Positions 5,976 to 55,399 of a stretch of DNA of 64,000 bases are shown piece by piece. Position numbers and translations under genes: made by a program. The stretch lies in the NCBI GenBank assembly GCA_005222975.1, contig NJBI01000008.1:19818-83817 (forward strand), read 5' to 3'. Within the stretch, counting starts at the first letter, position 1, and each line of letters starts with the position of its first letter. Source of the DNA: Promethearchaeota archaeon Loki_b31. Lineage in GTDB: Archaea; Asgardarchaeota; Lokiarchaeia; Sigyniarchaeales; SOKP01. Below the pieces are notes generated by a model. The model did not search any database and was not told the origin of the DNA. It saw only the letters and a program-made list of their open reading frames with translations.

Positions 5976-6050
5976 GGGCCAATGGTCTAGTGGTATGACA
6001 TCTGCTTGACGTGCAGAAGGTCGGGAGTTCAATCCTCCCTTGGCCCACCA
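5976..6050 (+). tRNA. tRNA-Val(GAC), CCA encoded
   Basis: GGGCCAA/TTGGCCC acceptor stem, TCTGC-TTGACGT-GCAGA anticodon arm, GTTCAATC T-loop, terminal ACCA. Confidence 0.96.
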
Positions 6051-20591: not shown

Positions 20592-21818
20592 TTAGAATTT
20601 TTTGATGTTACTCTTTAAATAGAAAGATTCGAGATTATTTAACTTTTTTATCGATTCAGGCACATTATTTATTTTATTAAAGCTAAGGTTGAGCACTTTT
20701 AACCATTTAAGCCTCCCAATAGTTTCTGGAATAAGGTGTAAGTTTTGATCGATTAAAATTAATTCTTCTAGAAATTCTAAACTACAAAGCTCTTTTGGAA
20801 ACACACCAATTCGAGATTCTGTTGATAAATAAATAATTTTGGTGATATGCCCTACATTGTTTACTTCATAATGTACGGCTCCTTCAGAATCAATCTTTCC
20901 ATCTCCTTGCATTTTCTTACATGTTAGCCCTGTTAGAATCTCTAATAAACCCAGGATATGAACTTCTGATTTTTTAACTCCCTCAAATATATACTTATGG
21001 ACGTATTCGTTTTTGCTTGCAATCTCTACAACCCAGCTAGGTAAACTGTCTAACTGATTGTTGCTTAAAATTAATTTCTTAAGTGACAAAAGATTTGGGC
21101 ACATATCTGGATATTTTTTTAGTTTACAATATGATATTTCCAAGAATTCTAATTTTGATAGCTTACAAATCGACGATGGAATTTCTTTAAGGCCTTTGAG
21201 AGACAAACTTAATATGAAACCTTTTTTGGCAGCTCTAACGCGACCTAGTCCTTTATACCCTATTTCGGTATTTTCTTTAATTAGTACTTGTTTAGCTTCG
21301 TCTGATAACTCAAACTTTTGTAAAAAATTCTTTAATTCGCTCCTAAATTTCCTATAATCTAAATAATCGATATCGAGAACAAATTTTGAGTCTGCTGAGT
21401 TTAAGTTATAATAAGTTCTAATCTTTTTTAACGCTTTTTCTCGAATTTCTTCAAATTGAGGATACTCTTCTGTTTCAAATAAATCTAATAGTTTTTTAAA
21501 GAAATATATAGATTTTTCATTTTGGATCGCCCATAATAAAGGTTCATGTTCCCGTGTTGGAAAGTTCTGGATCAATACTTTAGCTGCTTCAAATCTAACT
21601 AATGTAGACTCATCAGAAATTAAGCAATTTTCTATTATGTTAAAGGTTAGTTCGTCTTCAATCGATAATTTACCGATATATTCTAAGCTTGAATATCTAA
21701 TAGCCTCATTATCACTTTTATTTATTAACGATTCGAAAAGCTTTAAGGCGTCCTTCTTTCCTACTTCGTTATTAAGTACTTTGAAATAAATTTTTTCAGG
21801 TGTTAATTGATCGCTCAT
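20592..21818 (-). CDS. HEAT-repeat plus leucine-rich-repeat protein
   Basis: N-terminal HEAT motifs (IRYSSLEYIG, VRFEAAKVL) and LxxLxLxxNxLxxLP repeats; start moved to the ATG at 21818. Confidence 0.85.
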   Translation of the reverse strand: MSDQLTPEKIYFKVLNNEVGKKDALKLFESLINKSDNEAIRYSSLEYIGKLSIEDELTFNIIENCLISDESTLVRFEAAKVLIQNFPTREHEPLLWAIQNEKSIYFFKKLLDLFETEEYPQFEEIREKALKKIRTYYNLNSADSKFVLDIDYLDYRKFRSELKNFLQKFELSDEAKQVLIKENTEIGYKGLGRVRAAKKGFILSLSLKGLKEIPSSICKLSKLEFLEISYCKLKKYPDMCPNLLSLKKLILSNNQLDSLPSWVVEIASKNEYVHKYIFEGVKKSEVHILGLLEILTGLTCKKMQGDGKIDSEGAVHYEVNNVGHITKIIYLSTESRIGVFPKELCSLEFLEELILIDQNLHLIPETIGRLKWLKVLNLSFNKINNVPESIKKLNNLESFYLKSNIKKF

Positions 21819-21820
21819 TT

Positions 21821-22957
21821 TTACTTTATACTTTCTTTTACTACTTCGTGATGACATACCGTCAATGAGAGCGTTTTAGGGGCAATCATTTCGATGTTTT
21901 TCATAACATGCACATATGAGGATAAGATTATTAAATTTTCGTTATTACCTTTTAATTTTACATTTTCTTGGATATTACAATTATCAGCAATGATAGCTTT
22001 TTCGATTTGAACATTACTTGAGATATGTGTCTTGTTATAGATTAGACATTCCTTAAGTTCGGAATGCTTATTAATAACTACATTATCGCCAATTATTACA
22101 TTCGGACCAACTTTACAATTCTCTCGAATTACAACGTTTTCACCAATTGTACAAGGAGGATAAATTTTTACGCTTGTGTGGATGTCTGTAGAAGGTTCTA
22201 TTAAATTTCTTACATTTCCTTTCTGATTTTTTATTAAGTCGTTCATTAATAGAACATTTCCTTGCAATAAATCGTAGGGTTTACCAACATCGCTCCATAT
22301 TCCACTAATAGGGTAATGATAGAGCATATTTTTATCGGCAACTTTAGGAAATACATCCCTTTCAATAGAAACTTTTTTGTTTGGTTCGATAAAGGAAAAT
22401 ATTTCAGGTTCTAGGATATACACGCCAGCGTTAATAGGCATAGGAACATATTTGCCGTCTGGAGGAGCGTATTCGTCCTTTTCAAGAAATTTTAATAGTT
22501 GATGCGTTTCATTATTTACTATCAATACACCATATCTTAAGGGATCCTCTACGGTTTTACCGGCTACTGTTCCAATACCTTTACACTTTTCGTGAAATTT
22601 AAGCATGTCGCTAAAACTATAATTCAAAATTACATCTCCATTTAACATGAAAAAGTTATCGTTTTCGAGGTAAGATTCTGCTAATTTAATTGCTCCCGCA
22701 GTTCCCATTGGATGTTTTTCGTCTGTATAATGGATTTTTATTCCTAACATTCTACCTTCCTTGAAATAGCTTTTAACAATATCATCCATCACACTAACGG
22801 CTAAAACTACTTCTTTAACTCCAGCTGCTTTTAATAAGAGTATCTGTCGCTCCATAACTGGTTTATTCACGATTGGAATTAATGTTTTGGGTATAGTACA
22901 TGTTAGTGGTCTTAATCGCGTTCCCCAACCGCCCGATAAAATTATTGCTTTCGTCAT
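21821..22957 (-). CDS. NDP-sugar pyrophosphorylase (mannose-1-phosphate guanylyltransferase-like)
   Basis: ILSGGWGTRLRPLT, PKTL, GTAGAI, NGD, NAGVY, C-terminal hexapeptide repeats. Confidence 0.92.
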   Translation of the reverse strand: MTKAIILSGGWGTRLRPLTCTIPKTLIPIVNKPVMERQILLLKAAGVKEVVLAVSVMDDIVKSYFKEGRMLGIKIHYTDEKHPMGTAGAIKLAESYLENDNFFMLNGDVILNYSFSDMLKFHEKCKGIGTVAGKTVEDPLRYGVLIVNNETHQLLKFLEKDEYAPPDGKYVPMPINAGVYILEPEIFSFIEPNKKVSIERDVFPKVADKNMLYHYPISGIWSDVGKPYDLLQGNVLLMNDLIKNQKGNVRNLIEPSTDIHTSVKIYPPCTIGENVVIRENCKVGPNVIIGDNVVINKHSELKECLIYNKTHISSNVQIEKAIIADNCNIQENVKLKGNNENLIILSSYVHVMKNIEMIAPKTLSLTVCHHEVVKESIK

Positions 22958-28385: not shown

Positions 28386-28605
28386 ATTTTAGTTTTTTTA
28401 TAACTGTCTTAAAGTTAACGCTTATATTTGTTTATATTTATATAATTCTCATATCTGGTTGTGACACTTCAGCAAAATCTTAAAGTTAAGGAAATTCAAA
28501 AGCATAAAAAGCAGATGACGCTTCAGTAAATTGGCATATGCACGATATTTATATAATATAATTATTACTTTATTAATAGAAGTATTAATGTGAATCCTTA
28601 ATTTC

Positions 28606-29868
28606 ATGAAAGAATTTAAAATTAATAAGTTCTTAAAACTGCGGTTAGAGAACGATAAAACAAACATTTACGTAAAAGATCAATTGTTTAGACAATGTAA
28701 ATTTTTAATGATTAATATTGAACCTAATAACGCGTCTAATTTTGACGAAGTAACTTCTATAGACGAAGCAGAAAAAATATTAGATAAATCGTTAGAAGAA
28801 AAAGAACTAGAAGAATTTGATATACGACCTGAGGAGGAGTTTTGGGCACATTGTTCAAACTTGGACGCGTGGGCAAAGCATCAATACGATACTCGATTAT
28901 TGCATAGAACTCTGGCATTTCCTATTTTAAGGGCTTTAACTGAAGCGGGAGATCAAGTAGCAAAAGCAGTATTTAAAGAAGAAATTATAAAGAGATTCGA
29001 AAGCGGTCATCCAAATGTTGTTCGCTACCTAATTAGAGGAGGCTACATAAGAAAATATGCCAAAAAAGAACTGTTAGAAGCGTTTTTGGAAAGCAAGGAA
29101 GTCTCTATTCTAAAAAAGCTTCAGACTTTTTCTAAAACGGATATGGAAATCGCGGAAGAGATCGATATATTCTATGAGGAATCACATTATACCGTAAAAT
29201 TTGATAAAAATAAACTTAGTGGATTGGAGCTAAGAAGTCTTAACTTAAAGCAATTCCCAATAGAAATAACGGGATTAGTTTCTCTTAAAAAACTTTTCTT
29301 AGATTATAACGCGATACGATCATTACCAGGTGAAATCTGGCAATTAAAGAATCTACGAGAACTGAGTTTAGCAAGTAATTTACTAGAAACGCTTCCTTCA
29401 GAGATTAGTTCGCTAAAATCTCTTGAATCTCTTTCTGTGAATCTTAATAAATTTAAAGTTTTTCCGGAGGCTTTAACGGAATTAAAGAATCTTAAATATT
29501 TAGGTTTAGCAATGAATCAAATCTGTGATATTCCTGAATCAATTGAAAACCTAAGAGATTTGAGAATTTTAGTTTTAAATCGTAACCGTATTTGCAGATT
29601 ACCTGAGACTTTGGGAAATCTAAAATCTCTGGAGCTTTTACACTTGGGCAACAATAAAATAGATTTTATTCCCGAATCACTTGGTAAATTAAATTCTTTA
29701 AAAGAACTTGAAGTTCAATCTAATTATTTAACCATTCTTCCGGAATTTTTATTTAAGCTTAAGAATCTAAAAAGGCTTTATATATCAGACAATAATATTA
29801 ATCATTTCCCAAACCTAAAAAAAAAGATTAATTCTTTAGAAGTGTTTAGTTACGACGAAAAAAAATGA
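28606..29868 (+). CDS. Leucine-rich-repeat protein with conserved N-terminal domain (EFKINKFLKLRLE...FWAHCSNL)
   Basis: About nine LxxLxLxxNxLxxLP repeats in the C-terminal half. Confidence 0.9.
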   Translation: MKEFKINKFLKLRLENDKTNIYVKDQLFRQCKFLMINIEPNNASNFDEVTSIDEAEKILDKSLEEKELEEFDIRPEEEFWAHCSNLDAWAKHQYDTRLLHRTLAFPILRALTEAGDQVAKAVFKEEIIKRFESGHPNVVRYLIRGGYIRKYAKKELLEAFLESKEVSILKKLQTFSKTDMEIAEEIDIFYEESHYTVKFDKNKLSGLELRSLNLKQFPIEITGLVSLKKLFLDYNAIRSLPGEIWQLKNLRELSLASNLLETLPSEISSLKSLESLSVNLNKFKVFPEALTELKNLKYLGLAMNQICDIPESIENLRDLRILVLNRNRICRLPETLGNLKSLELLHLGNNKIDFIPESLGKLNSLKELEVQSNYLTILPEFLFKLKNLKRLYISDNNINHFPNLKKKINSLEVFSYDEKK

Positions 29869-29886
29869 ATTATTAAGTTGTTCTAA

Positions 29887-32800
29887 TTACCACCAAGTTT
29901 TATAACTCTTTGGGAACATATAATCTGTTGGAATTAGTAAAAATTCTCTTCTTCTAACCCACTGTTTGATTAGGCCGAGATCAATCTCAATCCCGCTTTC
30001 AAAACTAGCGATCTTTACTGGCATAAACATAGCCGAACCTATACCAGAGGAAAAGATTTCGTCGGGACCGTAAAATCTGTTACGATCAAACGCGCCAATC
30101 ATTTTATCGTATTCATAAATAGGTTTGCCGCCTAGATCGTCTTTAGCAATAACGAATAAGAAATCCTTTGAATAAGGACTTTTAGCTCTGGGCATAATAA
30201 CACTCATTGATAGTTTAACAATGTGTTCTAATTTATTTTGGAGGTCGCTATCTTGCAAATCGATGTCAAAACATCTAGCGTCTTTTTTATTAGTACCAGA
30301 TATTGTATGCCTTTCAGATGGAACAAGCTTTTCCCATATTTCCGTCCTCAAGAGGAACTGATAACCAACAATCTGATTTGGCCTATAAAGAGGATAAATT
30401 TTTACCTTACCATTTTTTCCCACAGCGCTTTCGATTGCTTTCTTTAAAATTTGCGCCTTTTCTTTAACTATGCCGTAATTATATCCTTGAAAATCAAAAT
30501 CTTGAAATTGATAATGGACATCCTCTCCTTTAATGAAAATCCTCCAAATTTTTATGTCTTTACCAACAAAGTCGTCCTTATTGAGCCAAATTTCAACTGG
30601 TATACCGTTAAATTCGACCTTAAAGAATTTAATTTTTTTATTATACTTATCTCCAATAATAAGATCTTCAATTTGAACTCTAAGATTGTATTTTGAGCCA
30701 TCTTGACAAAAAATACTCTCTCTATGATAGTTTAAAAGTTCTCTTTCGGCAGAGATTAGAAGCCTATTATAAAGGTCAATTTGCTCGTCTTTCTTTAAAC
30801 TTAAAGTCTGCACTTTAGTTCTTAAAACGACCTTTAAAGCATCCAGCATTTCCAGCCCAGATTCAACGAATAATTTTATTCGCCTGTGAGTAGCCAAGCC
30901 TGCGTAGTTATTATCTTTGTAATTTTTATATAGACCTTTGAACTGTGATGCAATATCCGAGTCGAAAGATTTTGAACTAGTGGAGATAAATGAATCGTCT
31001 ATAAATGAGATAGGAGAATATCCAAAACGAATAATGGCATTTTGTATATCAATCTTTCTCTCTACTGGCAAAACCATGTGCGAATCCAAAAAGAACAACG
31101 AAAATAAATGCTTATATATGTTACTATCACTAAGAATGGGGGTGGGCTTAGTTTGCGTTGAGGTTATAATTGAAAATTGTTTGAGATACTTTGAGATATC
31201 AAACTTGCTTGGCAAGTTTAAAATATCAATCTTGTAAGATTTAGGACTTCCGTAAAAATCAATCATGTGCATGAAAAGTAGCCTTAATGTGAAATGTCCG
31301 AACAATCGAGATACAACTTCAAACGCGATCTTTCCGGCTTTTATTTCTTCGGGCGAAAAAGCTTCTTTCTTATCGGCACTGATATCAAAAGGGTTTTCCG
31401 AATACTTGTTGGTAAAAGATGTTTTTGCTTCTTTTATTAGTTCGCTAACTCTATCGGTTTCCGAATCTCCTTGGTAACTCGTGACCTTCTCGAACAACAT
31501 GTGGAACCATTCCTTTATCGTGAGGTCGCCTTCTTTCATAGGTCTGATTTCGCCGCTGTATTCTTTAAGGAACAAGAAGTCTAAGATGTCGTTTTTAGTG
31601 ACAAATAGTTTGTTAATTACTCCTTCAACATCGCTTTTACTTCTTAACGATGACATATCAATTCTCCCGGTAGATGGGGTAAATCTTACATTGAACAATC
31701 CTAACTTATCGGCAATGTAAGTGTTGGCGTACGATCTTTTAGTTGAAGTGCCTTCTTCTGTTGCTAAAATGTACCTTAAGTCGATTAAGTTTAGATAAGT
31801 CTTAAAAAATGTGTCTGAAGTAATTAACTTACCCGAGACTATAGGTGTAAAAACAAGACCATCTTTGAACTTTTTCATTGACTTTCTTGTTAAAGATGGA
31901 AATAATTTCGTTATATGAGGATAAGGCTCGAGATTACCTTCAGCTCTCTGTAAAAAGGCGAGACAATGAGTTTCCGCTCCTAATAAAATTCCTGAACTTA
32001 CAGTAAAAGCAAAGTAGTAATTTGATTGGTGAGTGTTTGCATCGACTTTAATGAAGTTAGCGTACCATCCTTCAGGCCGCACGTTTATTATAATTTCGCT
32101 TCCCTCTTTGAATATGTTAACGCGGCTGTTTAAACGAACGTAGTTGGTGTCGCATAAATAAACGTTGCGAAAGACTTTTTCTTTATTCTGATCGTTTTCC
32201 ATGTGCTTATATCCCTCAGAAAACCCTTGAGGTAAAATGTTTACGATCTCTGCGGGAATAACTCCAAATGTCGGTAGAGTCTTATATTCACCGTCGACAT
32301 CATTGCTACGATGGGAGACAAGAAGCGGCTTACCTTCGCTTTTATATTGGTTGAATAATTCTTGAGTTAATAGTGTAGGAGTCAATTTACCATTTACTTT
32401 AATGAAAGTGAAAGCTTGAGGTAAATCTTCGAATCTTAAAACCGTGCCTTGCTCGTCCAGGAATAGAAGGTCTATCTGCTCGCTCAACGCTAACTTATAA
32501 TGTCCTAAGTTATCTGTATCTTCTTGTATTAGACTATCAATCTCATTCTCTAACCAAGTTAACGTATTTTCAAGATAATTAGAACCTTCGAGAAGACTAA
32601 ATCTATCCTCAGAATATACATTACTGGCGCTTTCCCTAAAAATATTATATAATTCTCCTTCAAATTGAGGATTTGCAAGCATATTCTTGATATCTTGAAC
32701 AATCTTGCTTTTATCATCAGAACTGGTAAGTATTGTATGAAATAATTGATTTAATTCTTGAATTGTTGAAAAAGTGTAAGTTAAATCACCTACCATCTTA

Positions 32801-35800
32801 TGATCTGAACCTTTTCCGTAATCAAGAAACTTGTTTGCCGCTGCCATTCTTCTCATAAGACTTATTAACGTATTATCAATATCGCCTTTTTGGGGTACAC
32901 ATCCAGCAAAAAATCTGAAATTCTTTATATCTTTCAACTGGGTGACTCCTCTTGATAATTCATAGAAGAGACTATGAATGTGAACAGAGCCAAAATCGTC
33001 TTTTAACTGATTTAGCGTACCGCTACTTATGCCATCAGGATCAGAAGTGGCTTTAATCTCTGTTGCAATATAGGTAGTTGGAGAGATAATTAACTTTATA
33101 TCGTTGAACCTAGACATAGAAGGGAATAACGAGGAAAATGGTCTTATGTCTTTACCTATGATTAGATTTTTTAAATCGTATAAATCGTTCAAATTAGAGC
33201 CCGCTAATGAATCTAAATTCTCTTGAATGTAAACATTTCCATCTAACCAACCTCCTGCTCCGAAATTAATTCCGCTTAAAAAGGCTTCAGGAGACTGGAA
33301 ACCATCTTTGATAAATTGTTCAACAACTCTTATAATAAATCCGCTAGAATAATCTATAGTTTCACCAATTCTACCAATAAATGTCTTTGGGTTTTTAGCT
33401 ATCGAAAGCCCTGGAACTCTAGTGCTATCAAAAAAGGCTTCTGTAAATTTATACCAAAATGCAGTTATGCCAACAGGTCCTAGGAACAGTCTTGCTACCT
33501 TTTTAACGGAATCTTGATTATCAAGGAATTTCTCAATCTCTTTGATTGCTGTATGAATGTCAGCAGAATCGAGATCGAGACCTAATATATCTTTAGTTAT
33601 GTATTCGATAATTGCAGACTCTCCTTGCCGAATAATAGTGTCTTTTAATTTAAACGAGCTCGTTGCGCTCAATACAGTTAATGGAATTGCGTTCTTTATC
33701 ATTTTAGATGTCTTCAACCAACTATCCCACCTCTCGTTATTCACATCTTCGTCTTGAGAAGTCTTAATAAGAGTTTCTATGTAACTATTCTGCCACAATG
33801 TATCGTGAAAACTCGATAAATACTTGTCAACAAAAGCTGTTTTGTCTAACTGACTATTTCTAACAGTATAAATGTCTTTGTTATCGGTTATTCTTAGAAG
33901 GCTTTCTCTGTTTAATTCCATAATAAAGGAGGAGAAAGCGTCCATAATTTCAATCTCTTCAAGAGTACCACACATTTCATCAAAACGAAAATCACCAGCA
34001 AATTCATGCGAATGCCTTAACCTTATTGCCCTATAAGCGTCAAATTCAGCAAATTGAGAAAGTCTCTGTATTTCATATGCGACAGACAAACCGGGCAAAC
34101 TTGATATTTGAGCAAGTAAGGTATCTTTATTAATAGTAACTTCGCCTTGCTTATCTTCGCTAAACACGTAAGGAGAAACGATTCTTGTGCCTTCCGTAAG
34201 AAACCCAAACTTGGAAGTATAAAACCTTAACTCCATTTTTGAATCTAAACCGAAATTTAGCTTAATAATATCGATTGCGTCCCACATTTTAAAAGTTTCT
34301 CCATCAAATGGAGGCAAATTAAACTCTGAAATATCTCTGTCCCAACCTTTAACATCTTTTGAAAATTTCCGCAATATATCTCCACTGAGTGATTCCATTA
34401 AAATTGAAATTTGTCCCGCAGCTTTACCCCCATAAGCAACTGCTTCAACTACCTTTGAGTTTTCTAACCGCGCCAAATCGTTTTCCTTCTGTCTTGCTGC
34501 TTCATATAGTTCTTGAGTCTGTGTTTTATATTTTAATAATCCCATTTGAGCCTCAAGATTAGCAACGCTTTGAGCGGGATCGTAAGTAATAGTTGAAGTA
34601 ATGGGACCGTAATATTTAGCGTTTACTAAGTATTCAACTGCTTGTCCAGAAGAGCTTATGCCGTAGATCGATCGAATGGTGGCGCTATCGAACAAGCTCT
34701 TAAGCTCGGCGTCTTATCCTAAACCTTTCTTAACGCCTGGTAATTTATCGATCTTAATATCCTTCGATATCATGTCTTGCCTTGCGTTGCTAATAGCCGC
34801 GCGCATCATGGTGGTCGTACCCGCTTTCGGACTCGTAATTTTTTGGCCCAAGTGTTTGATCATAGGGCTAAATCCGTACAAACTAAAACCCGCAAAACTA
34901 AGTCCTGGAACTAACAGCGAAAGCCCCGCGAAAACGCCCGAACCGATAATTCCCGCCATCTTCAATATTGTCTCGTGCCTACTTGGAACTAAATCGAGGT
35001 TAGACATTATCGACCTTATATCTTTTCTGTTCTCTCTTAGAAACTTTTCCAAGGTAAACGATTGGTCGCTATCTCGTTCCGCGATAAGTTGTGATAGTTC
35101 GGTAGTTAAAGCGCTGTGTTGTAATTCTTGCTCTATCTGTGTCATTATATCAACGTCAAAAGATATGCCCCCTTGCGTGTCGGTGCCTAGACCTCCTAGA
35201 TTGAACGCGCCGAACATTTTAGTTTCCCGAACCGTGGTCATAAGCGTAGAAATTAGCTGTCCTACTCCTTCAGACCAGCCCAACATACGAGCCGAGTTTT
35301 CGAAGTAGGCCTCGATGAAACCGTCTACTACGATTTCTTCGAACACTTCCCCTATAGTCTGAGCAACGATTTTAACGCTCATAGAAGCCATTTGAACCGC
35401 AACTTTAGTCAATAACGACGACCCTATTTGAGCGCTCGCCTCAATAGCCCCTTGAGCTAAAATCTTTTGAATAGAAACGGCGGCTCCAGCAAGCGCAACA
35501 ATAGGCGCTGAACGCGAAGTAGATTGGAAAGTTAAAATCTCGGTGTAAGCGATCTCCCCGATTATTTTAGCCGTAGTCGCCGCAAAAACGTATTGATCGA
35601 AATAATCTAAGATAGGATACATCGTAGCTTGAGCTAAGAGAGTTCTTTGGTTCTCTTCCGAAAGATTGCCGTCGTCAGGTATTATCTTAGCAAATTTAAC
35701 CTGACACACGTAATAATATTCCGTCCCTTCGTCGTAGTTGGAGGCTGAATCGCCCATAAGCTCGTCTATTGGGCGCGCAAAATAAAGGTTTTGCAATTTT

Positions 35801-38800
35801 TCGGGAATCTCGTAATCAGAAGCGTCTAAAGTTTTAGAAGTTACCTCTTTATTTACTACCTTGTGTAGAATTACGCTTTCGATTGGGTAATTAAACGCCC
35901 CATACAAGTCAGCTAACGGTATTTTTGCGGAATAAAACTCTTTCTCCTCGTCTAAAAGGTCGGTCGAATCGATACCTTTCGTGTTTGACGCCCCAAAAGA
36001 GGCGATGTCCACGAAGAGATAACCAAATTTTCTGGACTCGCTAAGTTGGTCGTATCTTTGGGAACTTATTATCAACGGACTGAAAAGCGAAGATAAAGGC
36101 GCTGTATCGTCTTCTTGAGCGAATAGATATTGAGGAGTTGCGTCCGAACAGATCGGTTTTATAGAATTGAGAGAACCTCCAGTTTTTTCGTTAATTTCGT
36201 GCTGTAAGTAGCCGAGGGTGTTTTGTCTTAACTTGTAAGAATTGTAGTTCTGAATGATTCTTAGAACCATTTGAGGACCCGTTTTATAATATTTCATCGG
36301 TGCGGAAAAGAAAGTGGGCTCGTAGACCTCGTAAATAGGTTCTAATTCTAACATTTTATCGACTAAATCTGGGTCTTCGAAGTAGGTGTAGTGTTTTTGG
36401 TCGTTGTACGAATAAAGCTCGCTCGAGACCATTAAAAAGTCTAAATTGTGGTAATCGAAGTCTAGTCCAGCCATTATATCGGGATTTACATCTTGCGGTA
36501 AGGTGTTTGTCCACTTTAGATCGATATTAGACCAGATAAAATCTAAAAAGCCCGTGTTAGAGCCTCTCCAACAACGAGCGTCGCTTGGAGGGGCGGCAAC
36601 AACGTAGGCGAGGTATTCGTTTCCGGTTTGACCGCCTCGAACTTCAGCGTAATAAGTTCCGGGGTGACCACTTAACGCAGCAGGCATGCTATCGCTCCAA
36701 ATGTCGTCCGTAGGATATTTTTTATTGAGAATTCTTGGTTGATTGTTATTGGCGTCTTCTGAGTAAAAAGTTTGCGAGCGCAACTTTGCTTCTGCCTCGC
36801 GGGCTTTCACGTCGTTAGTAATTAAACTTAGCGAAGTATATATAGCAAAATACACGGGCAATGCCACCAGATCAGTAAAGATTCTCGCTAAAGCCGCAGC
36901 CACTCCCGCAATTATAGAAATAGTAACTTGCTCGGTTAAATCGCGTTCGTATCGTTCGCCAAATATCTTCCAAACTTTATTGAATTCTTTATGGCGGGTC
37001 TCGTAGAAAAGCTCGGAAAATCTGGCGTTTTGAGCACTTGTTGTGATTAACTTTCTTATTTCAAATACGTTGTCTTTGAGCTCGTATCCGTCGCGCTCGT
37101 CTTCTGGGAACAAACGGTCGCTCCTTCCTAATTTTGCAAACTCAAATATATTTCCTTCCGTTTGATGGAACTCGTGAGATAATACGTCTCTAAATTCGTT
37201 TAAATTTTCTATAGGCCAACCAGTTTCGGTTCTAGAATACGGAATAAAATCGTGTTTACCGTCGTAATTAAATCCAATAGCCATAACTTCGTAGTAAGCA
37301 TCGTCTCCCTCGCCCTTTACTGGAGAAAGCACGTAAACCGTTTCCCAAAATCCGTTTTCATCGCTATCGTAATAGAGATAATGACCGTTGGTTTTGGCTG
37401 CCTTCCCACCGTTGCGCTTGAAAGATTCCTTATCGGAAGTATAGTAAACTTTGCCATCAGCGGGGGTAATAAAAACGCCTGTTATTTTCAATTTCATGTC
37501 GGAAGTGCTCGAGGTCTTTAACGAGACAACTTTCTTATAGTCGTCGTAAGGGTTAATTCTACTAGGAATAACTATGTTTATTTCTCGCTCGAACAGATTA
37601 ATATTTTCGCTAGAAGAAGTTTCCGAATTTACTATAGTTAAAGACTCAAACTTACTTGGAACGTTAGAACCGTCGTCCCATTTGTCGTATTCTTCGGTTT
37701 GAACTGCGGGGATAAAATCAAGTGGAACGTCTTGCTGTTGCCCCGTTTCGAGACTAGTTATGGTTTGGCTAAGGTCGATTCCTAAGTCGATCGTCTCGTC
37801 TTCAAACAAATCCTTATACACTCTGATTTCTATTAGCGTGCCGTTATCCCAGTGATTTACGGTAATTTGTTCGCTTATTTGATTATCAACGTAAAGTTTT
37901 GTAGTTATTATCGAATATTTCTTGTAAGTTTGAGTTAGAGTTTCTCGAATATCCGAGGCGAGCCAGTGGTAACTACTTGGATAAGATCCGCTTTCGATCA
38001 TTTCAGGAGTGAGCTTCTCGTTAAAAATAGGATCAACCCTTCCTCCTGAAATTAAAGACCCTATCCACTCAGCCATGCTAGCGTATATGTAAGTAATCGC
38101 GTTCTGAGGTTTTGCCGCTAAAATAGTGGTTTCGCTGTTTGTAACGCGTGTATATTGAACGGTATCTGTTTTTTCGTATGTATATTGAATATCGGCGGCT
38201 CCATCGTAATCTTCGTCTACCATAACAGAATAAAACGAACTTTGAATGGAATAATCGGTAGAATAAGTTTGCTCGACGCTTTTTCTGGCCCAATAATCTA
38301 TATCTGTAAAGATAATCGTAGATAACGAAGTTGAGGTAGCAAACTGGGCATCGTCTACATCAAACCATTTAGTAGTCTCTCTTGGTCTTGATTTTAAGTT
38401 GTAGAGAGATTCGCTTCCTAAAAAGTCGTTTATGACCGTGTGCCAAACGATCTCGTTAGAATCTACGTCAGATTCAACACCAAATCTTATAACATCGATT
38501 TTACCGTTCTTATCTACGTCAATCACATGTTTAAAGTCTCTTTTACCGTCCATATCTGAATCAGCTTCGTATATAACGTTATAAGGGTCTAAATAAAGCT
38601 CAAAATTGTCAAATAAAGCAGAAGAAATGTATCCCTTAAGGGTTTTATTAGAGCTTAGTTCAGAATTTCGGGTGTAATCAATTGAAGTAAACGAAGTACT
38701 ATCAGAAGCTATTGTCTCAGCGCGCTCTACAAATAAATAATCGCCCGCATTTACCGAATATTCGAAAGAACCCGACAAGTAATCGTAAAACGAATTTTCT

Positions 38801-39315
38801 AAGTCGGCTAAATTACTCTGGTTGAAAGAGTCCGATAAATACAATTTAGTTTTTGTCGACACAGGTCCGTGTGTAAAGTTTAAAACGACCGTAATAGCGT
38901 CAAATTCGTTTAATAAACCATCAGTTGAGATTAAGTCTGTTATAGTAATTGTTTTAGCAGAAATATCAAAATTCACGCTATAATTGGTGTTATCGTCGTC
39001 GATAAATTTTTCTGAAAAGTTAGCGTAAAGTCCAACGATTCTAAACAACGAGAGATTTAAGAAGTCTTTATCGAAATCGTATTCGAGTTCAAAAGAGTAA
39101 ATATATTCGTCGGTCTCGGTATAAACAACGAAGTTTTCGGAGTAGAATTGCTCGATCTCGTAGTCATAGTTGCTATTTTCTATTAATTCTCCGTACCATT
39201 CTTCGAACCTAGGAGTTAACAAGTAATCGTAATTATATATTAATTCGAAAGATTCAAAGTTTGCGTTCTCGTATTTTAAATCGATTCCTCTGGGTAGCCT
39301 TCGTATCGAAAGATT
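29887..39315 (-). pseudogene. Giant (~3,100-codon) gene broken by one in-frame TAA at 34716-34714 and lacking an ATG start; probable mobile-element giant protein
   Basis: ORFs 34714..39222 and 29887..34695 share a frame, reading ...KKGLG*DAELKSLFDSAT...; the frame stays open upstream to 39315; both ORF-track starts are TTG. Confidence 0.75.
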
Positions 39316-39497
39316 TCAATTAGTTTTTCTTCTACAATCTTTTTTTTCCTTTCTTGGATTTGTTCTGTATCGCCTTCTTTTAAAATGTTTCGGATAGAAG
39401 GATACGAGATTCCTTCTAATCTTGCTATGTCTTTTTTGCTTACTCCCTTATTATATAGTTCTAATATTTTCGCTTTTTTTTCTTCGGAAATTGTCAT
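39276..39497 (-). CDS. Small HTH DNA-binding protein (Hin/resolvase-type HTH), possibly truncated
   Basis: KILELYNKGVSKKDIARLEGISYPSIRNIL HTH; its 3' end overlaps the open frame of the giant gene. Confidence 0.75.
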   Translation of the reverse strand: MTISEEKKAKILELYNKGVSKKDIARLEGISYPSIRNILKEGDTEQIQERKKKIVEEKLIEIFRYEGYPEESI

Positions 39498-40021
39498 GAA
39501 ATTTTATTCCTCATTTTTAGTGAAAATTTTAGCTTATTTTTCTGAATAATTATTGAATAATTTCTGAGAACGGTATTGGTATTTTTCATTTTTTTCAGTT
39601 AAAAATTTTTTTGAAATTTTTTTTGAAACTTAATTTTTTAAACTTATTTTTTGGCGTTTAGGAGCTTGTTTAATATTTACATTTTCATGCTTTTAAATTT
39701 TTAGTAATAATATTCACAATAATACTTACTATTAATACTAAAATAGATTTTTCAGAAAATTGCGAAATCGCTATAATTCGGTTTTTTGTTTTGGTTTTTG
39801 TCGATAAAAATCACGGTATTACCGATTTGTAAATTCAATTCCGATAAAAATATTGGTTTTGTTGGCTTGGTATTATTTATACTTGTAAGAGCTTTTTCCA
39901 ATTCTCTATTTCCAATTTTAAAATTTGGAAGTTGGAAGTAGGAAGTAAGAAAAAGGCACATTTAAAAGGTAGTAATCTAAATAACACATAATTAAAAATT
40001 AAATATCTGGATGTGTGAATT

Positions 40022-44233: not shown

Positions 44234-44276
44234 TCACTTTATAATCCAATAAAATTCATTGACCTTAGATAGTTGG

Positions 44277-45176
44277 TTTTAAAACCTTGTTTTATTGGAT
44301 ATTTTATTACTACATAAGGAGTTATACCCAAACACATATAGAAAATTTTTTCCATTTCAATCCTTGTTTTGTTGGATATTTTATTGTTACTAATATACAC
44401 TTCAAAACTTTGGATGCAAGAGAGTTAATTTCAATCCTTATTTTGTTGGATATTTTATTGTTACGAAGGAGAAACATACTGGGACGATTTGTGGGAAAAA
44501 TAATTTCAATCCTTATTTTGTTGGATATTTTATTGTTACGATACGGTATGGACTTATTTGTGTGAGAAATATAATATTTCAATCCTTATTTTGTTGGATA
44601 TTTTATTGTTACCATTGATGATTTATACATTCCTTATTTTGTTGGATATTTTATTGTTACCCCAGTCTGCCGTAGCTTTTAGTGCGACCACTTTTATATT
44701 TCAATCCTTATTTTGTTGGATATTTTATTGTTACTTATGATTGGACCGAGCAGAAAGGGATTAGTTTCAGATTTCAATCCTTATTTTGTTGGATATTTTA
44801 TTGTTACATCTCTTCCACTACATGTCATACATGAATCTCTTTTATTTCAATCCTTATTTTGTTGGATATTTTATTGTTACTACTGAGGGTATTACGATTT
44901 GGAACCAAGTTTGGACTATTTCAATCCTTATTTTGTTGGATATTTTATTGTTACAGGTAATGTTAATAAGGATGTTTTACCAAAGATATTTTATTTCAAT
45001 CCTTATTTTGTTGGATATTTTATTGTTACTTAATAACCCGGAAATATGAATCAAAACATCAACTCATTTCAATCCTTATTTTGTTGGATATTTTATTGTT
45101 ACAAAAAATGAGAGAAAGAACATTTAAAAATAGTCCAAAATTTCAATCCTTATTTTGTTGGATATTTTATTGTTAC
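44277..45176 (-). CRISPR. CRISPR array 1: 13 repeats (1 degenerate terminal, 1 truncated), 12 spacers; repeat GTAACAATAAAATATCCAACAAAATAAGGATTGAAAT
   Basis: 37-nt repeats with ~36-40-nt spacers; ATTGAAAT 3' end on the minus strand; leader on the right. Confidence 0.97.
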
Positions 45177-45710
45177 CCTTAATTTTTTAATAATATAATA
45201 CGCTAAGGCACTATTTAAATTTTGTTGAGGAGCAATTATTAATTCGTTGAAGGCGCCTTATTTCTATTCTTTTGATTTTTGAGCTAGCTCTAAGGATTCT
45301 ATACGATTTTTTCTCGAGCTGAGGTCTATCGTTCGAGAATTCTTTTTCGTATCTTCTGGCGCGTGAGTTGTTGTAAACAAAAAGATTTCGAACATTAAAA
45401 ATTTCTCGTTTGATATTTAAAGAAGCTCGGCGAAATTTGGTTCAAGGAAAACGCTCGCAAGCTCTTTTTCGTCTCAATATTAGCTAGTTGTTTTTATAAT
45501 AGTTTGCTTAAATTAAAGAATTTTAGAATTCATACGACCATAGCCTAACTTTGCTTTCGGGCTTTTTTATCGAGAAACACTCGATCAAGTGGACTTCTCC
45601 TTAACAAAAAGCTCTCATTGAGGCGTTGAATTAAATTAAATGGTTAGCTTGTACAAAATCGTAAAAAAAAATACTTCGATCCTCGAAATGGTTTAAATAC
45701 TTTAAATATA
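45177..45710 (-). promoter_or_regulatory. Leader of CRISPR array 1 (inverted copy of 56198-56730)
   Basis: Adjoins the first repeat; its reverse complement aligns along its whole length with the array 2 leader. Confidence 0.88.
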
Positions 45711-45860: not shown

Positions 45861-47421
45861 GGCATTAATGCTTTTTAGGTCATGGGAAAATAAAAACTTT
45901 TACCCGTAAGCGTTGAGAACGGTTTGAACTGAAATTCGCTTGCCTTCAGGGATTCTATACCTATTTTTTTCTTTTTACTATTTTTTATTAAATAACTATA
46001 CAAAGGGCGTCCCGCAAGATTTGTGAATGGGATATATCCATATTCCACAAGGAAGGCGTGAAGCGTGTATAATTTATGACCATATTCCTTATCTCTCTGC
46101 TTTCTCCCAGCTCCATTCCTCTTAACTTGCGAATATTTGCTTTCTATCTTGTTGGTGGTGATGTGTTTTCCCTTAAAAATTGTGAATATTGGAGTGAGCA
46201 GTTGAATCATCCACTTTTTAGCGCCCGCCCGCATGGATAACTTATTGGTCTCGAAATTTACGAAAATTTTGGCAGTCCCTTCTTTCTAAAACGAATCGGA
46301 TTGGTACTTCTCCAATTTTTGCCGCCATCGTTCGTTCTTATTTTGCGATGTATCTGATTTTCGAGGTCTGCCTCGTTTTGCTTGAACTTTTCCTTTAATA
46401 AACTTGATCTCCCAGTTAAACTTTAACTCGTGCTTATTGCGATAAAATGCTTTCCAGTGCGTATAGATCTTATAATGTAAAAAGTGAGGACCAAGCTTTT
46501 TATACTTGCTGATAATCACCTCTCCACGTTGCTTTTGGGCATGTAATTGAGCAACTTGAATTACTTTACTACCGAAAATTTTCGCGATTGCTTTATAGGA
46601 GGGCTCTCCATCGGTGATAAGGACTGTAAGTTTTTCTCTACACGCTTCAGGGATTTTATGGAACGCTTCAAGAATTAATTTCTTGAGATCGCCCTCATCT
46701 GCGAGTCCGATGGAAAGTGTTTCATAATCATTGTTGATAAATACAATTTCTGTATCAGAATTGCCTCAAGAGCCCATATAGATCTCATCCCCTAATATAA
46801 CACCTCGCGGAAGTGCTTTTAATTTCTGCTCAATTACATCCAAATTTTGTTGAAATACTTGCGAAACAAACGATTTTTTAAATTTACTTAACTTATCTTG
46901 AGGAATTCCCCATTGTTTTGCTATTCCAGTGAGCGGATATTTTAAAACAAACAGATCGTAAAGGATCATTTTAATTTTTTGTTGATAAAGTAATAAATTC
47001 CTCATTTCAATGTCCTTTCCAAACCGTTTCTCGCATTTTGAACACCTAATCCTATGAACGCTCCTATCTTCTAAAGTATTAAATCCGTTATATGTGAGTG
47101 TGCCCAAGTGAGCACATATGTTTTGTGAATCTGATTTTGAATTCCGCTTCTTAGGACCAGAAAAAAATTTTTTCCGTATCTTTTTATCTATGTCGTGATA
47201 ATTCATCATTTTCTTCTGCCAATTTTTTTTCTCTATTTAATATTGGGGAGCCCTTTTATTTTAATGTTTTCCTTGGAGCTGATGCTTTATACAACACAAA
47301 GATTGATAGATAACTGGACAAAAAAATAAGAGATCCAAAGATTTAAATGATATCAAACTAAATTTTCACAAAATAAGAAAATAAAAAAAAATTTTGGCAT
47401 GACCTAAAAGGCATTAATGCT
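45861..47421 (-). mobile_element. Decayed IS element (DDE transposase, IS1595-like) with 24-bp TIRs and 8-bp TSD GATATATT
   Basis: Left end GGCATTAATGCTTTTTAGGTCATG; right end rc AGCATTAATGCCTTTTAGGTCATG; GATATATT at 45853-45860 and 47422-47429; transposase fragments with Zn-ribbon, GDEIY, ITDG..SY and TNKIES...KR. Confidence 0.88.
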
Positions 47422-47474: not shown

Positions 47475-50105
47475 ATGAAAGACAAATTTCAATTAGTCTT
47501 TGGAGCTTTATTGCACGATATTGGCAAGTTAGGGTATCGAGCGGGCGAGAGGGGGAGTCACGAAGAGATTGGCGCGAGAGTGACTCAAGAATACGACGAT
47601 GTGCTCCCTAAAGTTAACAGCTTAATTTCTTTACACCATCAACGGGATAACGGAAATGTTTTTGAGGGCGAAGGGTATAACCTCTTAAAAAAAGTTATTA
47701 TTGCCGACTGGTTAGCGTCAGCAGAAAGGATAGAGGTCGAGGAAAGAAAAGAAGTGAGAAAAGTTGGACTGAGCCCTGTATTTTCTAAAATTAATCTTTT
47801 TAACAAAGAAATTAGTCGTCATAAATTTGTTTACTTAGGAAAAGAACTCGAGCTAAAAAACGGCTCTAAAGAGATATTCCCTTTAATAGAAAATGAAGCT
47901 TCAAGTTTATTAGAGCGTTATTTTTTAGGTAACTGGAATTTGTTCAAGAAAAAATTTCAAAGGGTAGGGGAATATAAAGACGATTTCGAGGCTTTATTTG
48001 ACTTTTTGTATTCTCTTGTTAAAACGCATTTTAAATTCGTACCTTCTGCTGCTTATTTTGTCGAACCAGACGTTAGTCTTTTCGATCACTCAAAAATGGT
48101 CTGTGCGATCGCTCTTGCCATTCATAACTATTTTAAAGCGAAGTCAGTTGAAGAAAAAGAAGAAATAGCCGCTTTAAATAATTTAGGTAAATTACTGCAA
48201 GGTCTATATAGAGAGGGCGATCTATACAAAAAGGAAATAGAGAAGGATAATAAGCTAAGAGAGGTATTTAAGAACGTTAAGTTTTTTGCCTTAATTCACG
48301 GCGATTTTTCCGGAATTCAGAAGTTTATCCATTTAATCAGTTCTAAGTCTGCTATGAAGACCTTAAAAGGAAGGTCCTTCTTTTTTACTCTGTTAACAGA
48401 GAATTTTGCGAGTTTTATCGTACAGCAATTAGACCTAACGGAAGCTAACATTATATTTGCGGGAGGAGGTCATTTCTATATAATTAGTCATTGTTTTGAC
48501 GAGCTGGAATCTAAAATAAGAGAGTTTAGTATCAAGATAAACGCTTTATTTATCGAGGAACTCAATTCCAGATTGTTTCTTGCTTTGGATTTCGTTCCCT
48601 TATCTGTTGAAAGTTTGAGAAACGGGATTTCTGAAATCTGGGACTCGGCAACTAGAAAAACCTCGAATAAAAAGTTAAAGAAATTTAACGATATAATTAG
48701 TACTTCTGGTACTAACTATTTTTCGAAAATATTCGGTCCTGTTCACGATTCTGCGTTGAAAACAGAAAGATGCGTCGTTTGTAATTCGTATTCGGATTTA
48801 GAACCTATCGAAAGAGGTGGCGAGGACCAATGGTGTTCTCAGTGCAGAAGCTTTAAGGAGTTAACTGATAAATTAAAAAGTAGCAAATTTTATCGCATTA
48901 CGCAAGATAGTCAAGAGAGTTATAACGATGTTTTAAAGGAATTTAACAACGCTGTGGAGTTTGCCGACCTTAATACCGCGTCAAAAAAAGATTTAAAAAC
49001 TTGGTGTTCGATAAATAACCCCTCCTTTGAAAAAACTATTGGCGACAAACTGTTACCTATCGGATTTCCACTTAACGAAAATGACTCTATTATCGACAAC
49101 GACCAATTAGGCGAGAAATCTAAAGAAAGGACAGGATTTAACAAAATCGCCGTATTAAAAATGGACGTCGATTCGTTAGGAAAAATTTTTCAAAGAGGCT
49201 TGCGAAAAAATTACAGTCTTTCTCGAGTATCTACTCTGAGTACTTCTTTATCGTTATTTTTTAGGGGATACGTTTCAAAACTAGTAGAGACGAGCTATCC
49301 CAATTCTATCTATTTGATCTTTTCGGGAGGAGACGATCTTTTTGCTATGGGTGCCTGGGATAAAGTTATTGAATTTGCGTTTGAATTGTATCGAGCGTTT
49401 AGAAAGTTCACAGCTTACAATCCCGACATTACTTTAAGTGCTGGTATAGTTTTAGAAAGTCCTAAGTTTCGTATTATTCACGCTTCAATGGTAGCGGAGG
49501 AACAGTTGGATAACGCTAAGTATAGCGAACCTTATTCGAGCGAATTTAACACTAAAAATAAAATAACCCTATTTGGTTCGGTTTTAAAATGGGATTGGAC
49601 CTTAGAAAAAGAACTAAAACATCTTCAATTGACCAAAGATTCTAAAGATATTAAAACGCTTCGCAGAGAGCAAATTATCGAGGTCTTTGAGACAAAAGAC
49701 GACGCCAAAATCAACGCGTTCCTTATCGATTGGCTTAACGACAAATCAGAATTCGAACTCTCATTAATTTTAAAAGACGTTCTGACCTATCTGCTCGTAA
49801 AAAAGGATTTTTCTAAATCAATGCTCCACAAATTAGAAACTTCTATAATAGGAGTAAGAAAATTACTTGAAGATTCCTTAAAAAGAAAAGTTAACGTTCC
49901 AAAGTTATGGCGATTAAAATATTATTTGAGAAAGGTTTTAGGCTCAAAAGACCGCGAAGTGAGGTTGTTGAGCCAATTTATTGTTTACGCTTTTGAAATA
50001 ATAATTAAAAACAATTTGTTTAAGACCGATCCAAATTTACAAATTAAAAACGTTGAATTCATAACTGTCGCAATAAAGTGGGCAGATTACTTAACCAGAA
50101 AATAA
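47475..50105 (+). CDS. cas10: Type III-A Cas10/Csm1 (HD nuclease plus palm cyclase)
   Basis: LLHDIGK HD motif, DFSGIQKFI, LKGRSF, CxxC/CxxC Zn finger, KMDVDSLG, SGGDDLF. Confidence 0.97.
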   Translation: MKDKFQLVFGALLHDIGKLGYRAGERGSHEEIGARVTQEYDDVLPKVNSLISLHHQRDNGNVFEGEGYNLLKKVIIADWLASAERIEVEERKEVRKVGLSPVFSKINLFNKEISRHKFVYLGKELELKNGSKEIFPLIENEASSLLERYFLGNWNLFKKKFQRVGEYKDDFEALFDFLYSLVKTHFKFVPSAAYFVEPDVSLFDHSKMVCAIALAIHNYFKAKSVEEKEEIAALNNLGKLLQGLYREGDLYKKEIEKDNKLREVFKNVKFFALIHGDFSGIQKFIHLISSKSAMKTLKGRSFFFTLLTENFASFIVQQLDLTEANIIFAGGGHFYIISHCFDELESKIREFSIKINALFIEELNSRLFLALDFVPLSVESLRNGISEIWDSATRKTSNKKLKKFNDIISTSGTNYFSKIFGPVHDSALKTERCVVCNSYSDLEPIERGGEDQWCSQCRSFKELTDKLKSSKFYRITQDSQESYNDVLKEFNNAVEFADLNTASKKDLKTWCSINNPSFEKTIGDKLLPIGFPLNENDSIIDNDQLGEKSKERTGFNKIAVLKMDVDSLGKIFQRGLRKNYSLSRVSTLSTSLSLFFRGYVSKLVETSYPNSIYLIFSGGDDLFAMGAWDKVIEFAFELYRAFRKFTAYNPDITLSAGIVLESPKFRIIHASMVAEEQLDNAKYSEPYSSEFNTKNKITLFGSVLKWDWTLEKELKHLQLTKDSKDIKTLRREQIIEVFETKDDAKINAFLIDWLNDKSEFELSLILKDVLTYLLVKKDFSKSMLHKLETSIIGVRKLLEDSLKRKVNVPKLWRLKYYLRKVLGSKDREVRLLSQFIVYAFEIIIKNNLFKTDPNLQIKNVEFITVAIKWADYLTRK

Positions 50106-50175
50106 AACATAATTTAATAAAAAATAATAAAACAATTAAAAACGAGGAAAAATTACGTATTTTAGTAGATGAAAA

Positions 50176-50607
50176 ATGTCGTATAAAAGTAAAAGAAATT
50201 ATGATGGTAGAAAAGACGACCGTGGAAATTCTGGGAATCAATTAGTTTTAGATATTAAGCGAAACGCCGAAAATATTTTAACGGAAGAAGATATAGAAAA
50301 ATTTATAGATCTCAGCGAGAGGTTTGGAACGTACTGTGCCAAAAACGGTATTTCAACGTCGCAAATTCGGGGAATATTTCAGAAAGTTAAACGATTACCG
50401 GACGATTTTGAAAGCTCGAAAAAAGAGTTGAATTTGTTGCGTCCAAAATTAGCGTATCAAAAAGGCAGGTTTTCAAAATTAGGGCCGTTGACAGAAGTTT
50501 TAGACGATTTAATTAAAAAAGTAAAAGACGATTCTACTTTAAAAGGGTTTAAGAATTTCTTTGAAGCAATTATCGCGTACCATAAAGCTGCTGGAGGTGC
50601 AGAATAA
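50176..50607 (+). CDS. csm2: Csm2 small subunit
   Basis: TSQIRGIF, LRPKLAYQKGR, FFEAIIAYHK. Confidence 0.95.
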   Translation: MSYKSKRNYDGRKDDRGNSGNQLVLDIKRNAENILTEEDIEKFIDLSERFGTYCAKNGISTSQIRGIFQKVKRLPDDFESSKKELNLLRPKLAYQKGRFSKLGPLTEVLDDLIKKVKDDSTLKGFKNFFEAIIAYHKAAGGAE

Positions 50608-50608
50608 A

Positions 50609-52544: not shown

Positions 52545-52551
52545 TAACAAA

Positions 52552-53859: not shown

Positions 53860-53906
53860 ATTTGAAAGATAGATGACCGTTTAAAATTTGTATAGGGGGG
53901 TAAAAT

Positions 53907-55373: not shown

Positions 55374-55399
55374 TTAATCAAAAGGATTTATTAACCAAT

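Follow-up and report, generated by a model that had tools for sequence, protein, structure and literature searches.

The window analyzed in this study, a stretch of 64,000 nucleotides from contig NJBI01000008.1 of Promethearchaeota archaeon Loki_b31, contains on its minus strand a long reading frame that, judged by alignment to its relatives, is the 5′-truncated and nonsense-interrupted remnant of a giant gene, of which it keeps the last ~3,130 of 11,000–20,000 codons. The window copy, which is very probably a genuine remnant rather than a working gene, is ordinary in itself, and the interest lies in its family, which includes reading frames that are among the longest in archaea, reaching 20,619 codons, and displays the logic of a polymorphic toxin/immunity or recognition system. 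Because a giant scaffold, unrelated cassettes on near-identical scaffolds, a co-varying neighbor gene, and 5′-truncated copies are features by which polymorphic toxin systems are recognized, we favor a toxin/immunity-like reading, in which the window copy is probably an orphan cassette, derived from the gene of a giant membrane-anchored surface protein and belonging to a polymorphic system that resembles toxin/immunity pairs or serves recognition.

Homology of the window frame to giant genes

Two open reading frames (ORFs) on the minus strand, 34714..39222 (1502 aa) and 29887..34695 (1602 aa), lie, as the initial annotation had described, in the same frame and are parted by a single stop, a TAA at 34714–34716 (codon 1534, counted from the opening of the frame at 39315), which is followed by DAELKS and then a TTG. 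Apart from this codon, the frame is open over 3,141 codons in DNA of ~30–40% G+C. In a tblastn search, one alignment ran through the TAA and paired window positions 39285–29890 with residues 10753–13904 of a giant protein of 13,906 aa, which is encoded by frame 9282–50999 of a rebuilt contig (G008:C23) in a genome of the same genus. When the whole genomes of relatives were searched, both window halves matched within single open frames of 9,240–13,906 aa, and homologs in the form of two separate genes with conserved starts were not seen. Closer relatives, such as P0001, P0002, and P0225, are metagenome proteins of 88–93% identity. P0002 (2,957 aa) and P0225 (3,741 aa) contain both halves in one frame at 87–88% identity and share the C-terminal KSYKTWW of the window, and P0225 carries 614 extra residues upstream of the window homology; P0001, which is 93% identical in the first half, also extends upstream (...YCSNVSWSNA|IDLEYEN...). 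In the alignment column of the TAA, P0001 and P0003 have Gln, and P0002 and P0225 have Arg. Because close relatives continue upstream and read Gln or Arg at the TAA, the window copy appears to have been cut at its 5′ side and to carry one nonsense codon, whose simplest origin would be a CAA-to-TAA change from the Gln of the relatives. By the same comparison, an intact form of the window's very allele exists elsewhere. The earlier view of the two ORFs as one gene cut by a nonsense codon, and now decaying, therefore holds, given the continuous relatives, the 5′ truncation, and the nonsense codon, while the idea of a complete gene of ~3,100 codons does not, because what is present is the 3′ quarter of a giant, without a conserved start, and the intact genes run to 11,000–20,000 codons. 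Reassignment of the stop codon was dropped as an explanation because there is only one in-frame TAA, the neighboring genes end normally, and the relatives have sense codons at that position.

The homology to the giant genes sets in abruptly at 39285, ten codons past the stop that opens the window frame, and the apparent TTG start at 39222 aligns with an internal Leu (YDYLLTPRF) of the G008:C23 giant. The 5′ breakpoint can thus be placed at 39285..39286 (no strand assigned). A 73-aa ORF for a helix-turn-helix (HTH) protein (39276..39497, minus strand), transposase/Cbp1-like according to weak NCBIfam and PHROGs matches, abuts and crosses this site; 41 further genomes from the genus contain no homolog of it. 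For the other 10,752 residues of the G008:C23 giant, those N-terminal to the window homology, there is no match elsewhere in the genome to which the window belongs (a 3.5-Mb assembly, 92% complete with 6% contamination), and a search of the same genome for a paralog of the fragment found none. Amino-acid changes on the window lineage are not in excess (26 versus 36 and 24 versus 29 derived changes in a three-way count), so either the damage is recent or the fragment is still constrained.

The breakpoint was also compared with the assembled contigs of four public sequencing runs. Contigs of X1, X2, and X6, runs that each come from a different study, are 90–97% identical to the first half, and in each the match ends exactly at 39285; the letters of the X1 contig beyond this point, read on the gene strand, give YCSNVSWSNA, that is, the ongoing giant frame. 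A contig of X5 covers 39285–39729 and is joined to other sequence on the far side. Contigs matching on the two sides of 39285 overlap by one base, so no shared repeat is seen that could mislead an assembler. At the other end of the locus, in each of the four runs, the match of the contigs breaks off at 28385, where a leftward 172-aa ORF starts, or at 28444–28480, and different sequence follows; depth is several-fold higher to the left of that boundary. The block of about 28,444–39,285, which comprises a leucine-rich repeat (LRR) gene and the giant fragment, may therefore be a variable island with its left edge there.

Truncation of this kind recurs in the family. In five of five other short copies, the homology starts 3–25 codons past the stop that opens the frame, and the point of the giant gene at which it starts differs in all five; the first Met stands 26–80 residues in, the copies lie inside their contigs, and an LRR gene is among the first two downstream ORFs in each. 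Shorter family members of 1,583–2,640 aa exist, and fragments with internal stops occur in several genomes, which indicates that decay is common in the giant family.

Architecture and distribution of the giant family

The part of the window frame upstream of the TAA (34717..39285, minus strand, residues 11–1533, with its 5′ end cut) corresponds to a conserved membrane module that is 74–76% identical to residues 10753–12307 of the G008:C23 giant, 93% identical to P0001/L040, and 94% identical to P0002. The module consists, in order, of an acidic β-rich part with four DxDxDG motifs, a transmembrane segment, an α/β domain, amphipathic helices, and a second transmembrane segment. The four calcium-type motifs and the three hydrophobic or Ala/Gly-rich stretches described earlier were all located by motif and hydropathy scans: DSDMDG, DVDKNG, DEDYDG, and DSDENG at read-through residues 252, 266, 367, and 650 (37351..38562); hydrophobic segment 1, a predicted membrane helix, at residues ~797–830 (36826..36927), with its counterpart at residue 11544 of the G008:C23 giant; amphipathic Ala/Gly-rich helices at residues ~1269–1330 (35326..35511), modeled as long helices with low confidence; and hydrophobic segment 2 at residues ~1450–1482 (34870..34968), which would form one long membrane helix or a helical hairpin, all on the minus strand. 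Plus-strand ORFs inside the fragment (e.g., 34676–35308) are 67% identical to their counterparts in G008:C23; such antisense ORFs merely mirror the conservation of the coding strand and do not represent genes in their own right.

The G008:C23 giant provides the full-length plan. It begins with a basic N-terminal region of ~650 aa and 7–8 hydrophobic helices (residues 650–890), which are followed by a strongly acidic, Asn/Ser/Thr-rich region of ~10,600 aa. Two late hydrophobic elements come next, a helix at 11544 and, after ~680 aa, a stretch of 30 residues at 12224–12253, and the protein ends with ~1,650 aa in which charge is balanced. A Laminin_G_3 (ConA-like lectin) domain lies near residue 1,900 of the 13,906, and the acidic ~10,600-aa stalk of the intact relatives is presumably situated outside the cell. 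No known secretion domain was found in this full-length relative, which starts instead with the basic region and the membrane helices; export in archaea may follow different routes. The window retains ~800 residues before the first late helix (that at 11544) and everything from there to the C terminus. Scans of both window halves against Pfam, PHROGs, NCBIfam, and PADLOC assigned no family, and the ESM Atlas gave no usable match to either half. For residues 820–1500 of the module, the structural model was of moderate quality (pLDDT 63.5) and Foldseek returned nothing below E 0.077. Sequence searches of the PDB, in which the queries were single proteins or one of two profiles (A1 and A3), returned nothing below E 0.27.

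Within the taxonomic family to which the window belongs, module residues 820–1500 had a match (E ≤ 1e-10) in 41 of 135 genomes, covering 9 of 13 genera, and 18 open frames are longer than 9,000 aa. The longest, 20,619 aa, has the conserved module around 140919–142658 of contig G123:C13 (locus L061). A profile of the same residues matched 33 of 301 genomes across the phylum, the window's own genome included: 29 of 68 in the window's own family and one each in three others (1 of 7, 1 of 21, and 1 of 76, the last a fragment with stops), with no match in the other 26 of the 30 Asgard families sampled. The giant family thus appears to be confined almost entirely to one Lokiarchaeia-type family; the source names of the relatives are Lokiarchaeota, Promethearchaeota, and Helarchaeota. 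Because gene callers split or truncate the giants, annotation pipelines are bound to go on listing them as unrelated "hypothetical proteins."

Polymorphism of the C-terminal region

Along the window frame, identity to the G008:C23 giant is 75–80% up to residue ~1540, falls to 20–30% over the next ~950 residues, and returns to 50–63% in the last 600. Among closer relatives, the change from alike to unlike sits just past the motif SSSGQAVEYLV (34624..34656, minus strand), which is found in the window, G008:C23, L040, and G014:C64. The window and L040/P0001 share 93% of their module residues, and their C-terminal regions can be aligned over the first ~144 residues only; against P0002, module and C-terminal region are 94% and 82% identical, respectively, and G008:C23, with 74% in the module, has the same C-terminal type as the window. 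In a single genome, G017:C66 and G017:C74 have modules that are 89% identical and C-terminal regions that are unrelated, and the more distant G017:C66, G008:C24, and G021:C143, with modules of 56–64% identity, have one common C-terminal type (47–55%). A conserved N-terminal part joined to unrelated C-terminal domains among close relatives, which is a criterion of polymorphic toxin systems, is therefore present in this family.

The C-terminal regions of the family measure 660–1,900 aa. That of the window comprises a fast-diverging middle part (31870..34623, minus strand, residues ~1565–2482), to which P0004, P0005, G004:C75, and G002:C50 show weak homology, and a terminal domain of 660 aa (29890..31869, minus strand) that defines the C-terminal type. 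Of 14 C-terminal regions compared with a profile of these last 660 residues, 3 matched, and relaxing the threshold to E 10 added no further match; the domain has 93 cluster representatives at E ≤ 0.001. AlphaFold2 predicted its structure confidently (pLDDT 90, pTM 0.88). The model gave no fold match when compared with solved structures by Foldseek (best E 0.3) or by exhaustive alignment to 48,161 chains with VIA-align (highest Z 5.6, for a helical piece of ~60 residues), and a sequence profile found no match in the PDB.

The neighboring LRR gene

The gene next to the remnant (28606..29868, plus strand) is intact and encodes a 420-aa LRR protein with six stretches matching Pfam LRR_8 (PF13855; 105.3 bits against a cut-off of 27, E 1.4e-30). 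It is convergent with the giant fragment, the two stop codons lying 18 bases apart, and its product is 63% identical to the LRR protein beside G008:C23, whose gene is likewise convergent. Hydropathy analysis indicated neither a signal peptide nor a membrane helix in the LRR proteins. In the first 14 loci compared, the first ORF downstream of the giant gene was an LRR gene in 10 (in one by repeat pattern only), the second or third ORF was so in 2, and there was none in 2; in 18 further loci from other genera, LRR was the first downstream ORF in 10 and was not found within 4 kb in 8. Altogether, of these 32 loci, which are related by descent and not independent, 20 have LRR as the ORF directly downstream of the giant, and 22 have it within about 1 kb. 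Since LRR_8 matches occur in ~18 open frames across the 3.5-Mb genome, chance adjacency is unlikely.

The similarity of the LRR proteins tracks the C-terminal type. The LRR proteins of the window and G008:C23, whose modules are 74% identical, share 63% of their residues, and those of the window and L040, with modules 93% identical, share 37%. In the trio G017:C66, G008:C24, and G021:C143, the LRR proteins are 65–67% identical, and for the pair G017:C66 and G017:C74, with its 89% identical modules, the value is about 40% over 127 residues. Across 19 loci (171 pairs), the partial Spearman correlation between LRR and C-terminal similarity, given module similarity, was 0.30, and among 2000 permutations of the labels a value this high arose once; the corresponding partial correlation between LRR and module similarity was 0.02, a level attained in 842 of the 2000. 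In five of the loci that lack LRR, the C-terminal region is of another, shared type, and the first ORF after the giant is a gene from one family of small basic proteins of ~130–190 aa, which replaces LRR there (L073, L074, L076, L083, and L087, from five genomes). Such co-variation shows that neighbor and C-terminal region are exchanged together, the partner family going with the type. Complex prediction with residues 81–660 of the terminal domain and the LRR protein scored 0.00; this gives no answer and speaks neither for nor against an interaction. A second LRR protein of the window (20592–21857, minus strand, 421 aa, with a weak HEAT-repeat match), is encoded at a distance of 7 kb from the partner gene, and its resemblance to the partner LRR proteins is confined to the repeats.

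Surroundings of the full-length genes

Upstream of three full-length giants (L025 1460–9013, L038, and L036), there is a conserved block composed of a 249-aa ORF, a ParB_N protein, small ORFs, and an ORF of ~600 aa, in which ParB_N is the sole member with a known family; no Pfam match to ParA or MinD was found in these three relatives, whose contigs end inside the block. Genome G008 has two copies of the 249-aa ORF, which share 98.6% identity and at which the contigs break off. The only tRNA gene of the window, tRNA-Val at 5976–6050, lies 24 kb away from the giant fragment, and in 18 related stretches that were scanned, one tRNA gene stands directly after an LRR gene and one is 4 kb away. The former is a tRNA-His (L028 11133–11201), ~140 bases after the LRR gene behind the G008:C24 giant. 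A scan of IMG/VR with the N-terminal half found no relative, and ~30 spacers from the two CRISPR arrays of the window matched neither any giant locus nor the window between 28 and 44 kb. About 4 kb downstream of the G017:C77 giant (L027 11407–13812), an 802-aa protein with Pfam matches to PCI, E3_UFM1_ligase, DDRGK, and VPS28 is encoded; the combination of domains is eukaryote-like.

Discussion

The family can be pictured as follows. The giant stalk and membrane module would present or deliver an exchangeable C-terminal effector, and the protein encoded by the adjacent gene might bind that C-terminal region as its cognate partner, either for immunity or as a receptor. The window copy and all five of the other short copies have lost their 5′ part and keep conserved sequence together with the C terminus, as orphan 3′ cassettes do, and the mosaic identities among relatives suggest that such cassettes recombine with a main gene. 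The window copy, which lacks a start, anchor, and stalk and contains a stop, has most likely become a pseudogene recently or persists as a silent orphan cassette; the LRR gene beside it, being intact, may still be useful alone, and may be what is kept. An effector/immunity function of the giant family, which we propose by analogy, is a tentative interpretation. More speculatively, Lokiarchaeia-type Asgard archaea might possess their own contact-dependent polymorphic effector or kin-recognition system, made of giants with exchangeable cassettes, cytoplasmic partners that are usually LRR proteins, and a reservoir of orphan cassettes. If that is true, the system would be the first of its kind described in the archaeal relatives of eukaryotes, and inside the cell its LRR proteins would specifically bind effectors, whether foreign or self. 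If the cassettes and LRR partners are cognate, they would give a first handle on how Asgard archaea compete with or recognize their neighbors, and they would be a prokaryotic example of LRR proteins acting as specific binders.

The polymorphic toxin proposed in the initial annotation is accordingly upheld in part: the conserved module, the swappable C terminus, the co-varying neighbor, and the truncated orphan copies speak for it, while no toxin domain, secretion signal, or known fold was found. Several observations weigh against the orphan-cassette reading. Searches of the C-terminal regions with Pfam, PHROGs, NCBIfam, and PADLOC found no toxin, peptidase, nuclease, or secretion domain; the confident model of the terminal domain (pLDDT 90) matches no solved fold; and the C-terminal regions, at 660–1,900 aa, are far larger than typical polymorphic-toxin tips. 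No LRR gene is nearby in 10 of the 32 loci, the kinship among loci means that the permutation figure overstates the case, and the co-variation shows joint exchange and is not proof of binding. The window's genome holds no intact family member with which a cassette could recombine. Finally, the truncation rests on this one assembly, and among the contigs listed for the four runs none bridges 39285.

The last point leads to the possibility that the remnant is an assembly artifact, produced by a chimeric join at 39285, an error at the TAA, or both, in an organism that in fact carries an intact giant. The contigs of X1, X2, and X6 that leave the window exactly at 39285 to continue as giant frame, the X5 contig that joins the other side to something else, and the incompleteness and contamination of the genome would all fit with such an error. 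These X1, X2, and X6 contigs are, however, 90–97% variants from a different strain, the single-base overlap offers no repeat at which a false join might form, five other genomes have similarly truncated copies inside contigs, and the assembly contains no part of the ~10,700 residues that were lost, so that we regard an artifact as improbable. Another possibility is that the fragment is still functional, producing one or two shorter proteins from an internal start or being translated by read-through of the TAA. That there is only one stop in ~3,141 AT-rich codons, that the window lineage shows no excess of amino-acid change, and that shorter family members of 1,583–2,640 aa exist would be understandable if this were the case, but those shorter members are themselves truncated, with no Met near the start. 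Moreover, the window frame has no conserved start, its TTG at 39222 corresponding to an internal Leu and its homology extending toward the opening stop, the membrane anchor and stalk are gone, and all intact relatives are continuous across the TAA site; residual function is, in our judgment, very unlikely.

With regard to the family itself, the giants might be non-toxic adhesins or cell–cell recognition proteins, in which the acidic stalk would serve attachment or the recognition of partners, and the variable C terminus and the cytoplasmic LRR protein would constitute a signaling or allorecognition pair, with a logic like that of polymorphic recognition loci. The lectin-type Laminin_G_3 domain, the ~10,600 aa of surface-like sequence with membrane helices at both ends, the cytoplasm-like charge balance of the C-terminal region, which agrees with a cytoplasmic LRR partner, and the failure of Pfam to find a toxin domain are all compatible with this view. 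Truncated orphan 3′ copies accompanied by a partner gene, and unrelated C termini on near-identical modules, are nevertheless the signature of polymorphic toxins in the available part of their description (PMC3482391), and a purely adhesive or recognition role seems rather unlikely. The initial annotation had proposed still another origin, in which the gene would be cargo of an aloposon-like integrative element. The ParB-like gene that was to be looked for beside homologs is indeed present in the conserved block upstream of full-length relatives, and aloposons are said to encode ParB-like proteins in the portion of PMC11529989 available; several copies per genome in a patchy family (41 of 135 genomes), the one relative with tRNA-His directly after its LRR gene, and the higher G+C content of the giant genes compared with their flanks point in the same direction. 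In the accessible text of PMC8813620, however, aloposons have tandem genes for two giants of 3,000–6,000 aa, Otus and Ephialtes, integrate at a tRNA gene downstream of these, and contain four consecutive upstream genes, including one for a MinD/ParA-like ATPase. The window ORFs are one gene and not tandem twins, and their relatives form one frame of 11,000–20,000 aa; no tRNA gene adjoins the window gene or 17 of the 18 related stretches; no MinD/ParA match was seen in the part of the upstream block that the contigs of three full-length relatives cover, and no integrase was seen; the IMG/VR viral contigs contain no relative and no CRISPR spacer of the window matches the loci; and in 26 other Asgard families the profile of the module is without a match. 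Membership among aloposons is, on the features given in that text, not supported, and we consider it highly improbable that the gene was cargo of such an element. The full-length locus may be mobile, in view of the shared ParB-like block, the near-identical ORF, and the higher G+C content.

The preferred reading, that of a polymorphic cassette system, can be compared with several known systems, each as described in the accessible part of its source. The bacterial polymorphic toxin systems CdiA/CdiI and Rhs (Zhang et al. 2012, PMC3482391) have in common with the giant family a very long conserved delivery part, unrelated C termini among close relatives, an adjacent co-varying gene, and 5′-truncated 3′ copies that keep part of the conserved region. 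The giant family differs from them in that it shares no domain homology, has no known secretion route, is anchored by membrane helices, and carries C termini of 660–1,900 aa without a toxin fold; toxicity and immunity are assigned here by analogy only. The same source lists LRR proteins among immunity families and describes polymorphic toxin systems as generally absent from most archaea. The aloposons of Heimdallarchaeum (Wu et al. 2022, PMC8813620) resemble the giant family in that both comprise Asgard-specific giants whose function is unknown, have small genes in a conserved upstream block, and include a ParB-like gene (PMC11529989), and they are set apart, as far as their description goes, by the single giant of 11,000–20,000 aa in place of tandem 3,000–6,000-aa twins, by the lack of a tRNA target at most loci and of any MinD/ParA gene seen, and by homologs restricted to a few Lokiarchaeia-type families. 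A survey of huge proteins (PMC11573180) reported archaeal members that carry Laminin_G_3 near the N terminus, counted 12 proteins above 5,000 aa in Lokiarchaeota, and described their function as not understood; G008:C23 shares this architecture, with its Laminin_G_3 domain at ~residue 1,900 of 13,906, and the available text of that report describes no polymorphic C terminus, LRR neighbor, or truncated copies. The hypervariable Ig-domain module of Thermococcales (PMC8416519) is, in the excerpt at hand, similarly an archaeal large surface-type protein with variable downstream genes in a context of conflict or self/non-self recognition, and it differs in its proteins, its lineage, and its far smaller genes. 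In the literature searched, to which supplementary tables did not belong, we found no description of the polymorphic end, LRR pairing, or orphan copies of the giant family, and no paper describing a polymorphic toxin-type system in Asgard archaea.

Other features of the window

A type III-A CRISPR-Cas locus occupies 47475–56074 of the window and encodes Cas10/Csm1 with an HD domain, Csm2–5, a Csm6-like HEPN protein, and Cas6b. It is flanked by two arrays, at about 44240–45200 and 56200–58100, which consist of ~13 and ~19 copies, respectively, of the same repeat of ~37 bases. Just upstream of cas10, a stretch of ~120–190 bases (47234–47420) recurs on five other contigs of the genome with 75–82% identity, in two of them at a contig end; it may be the end of a repeated element.

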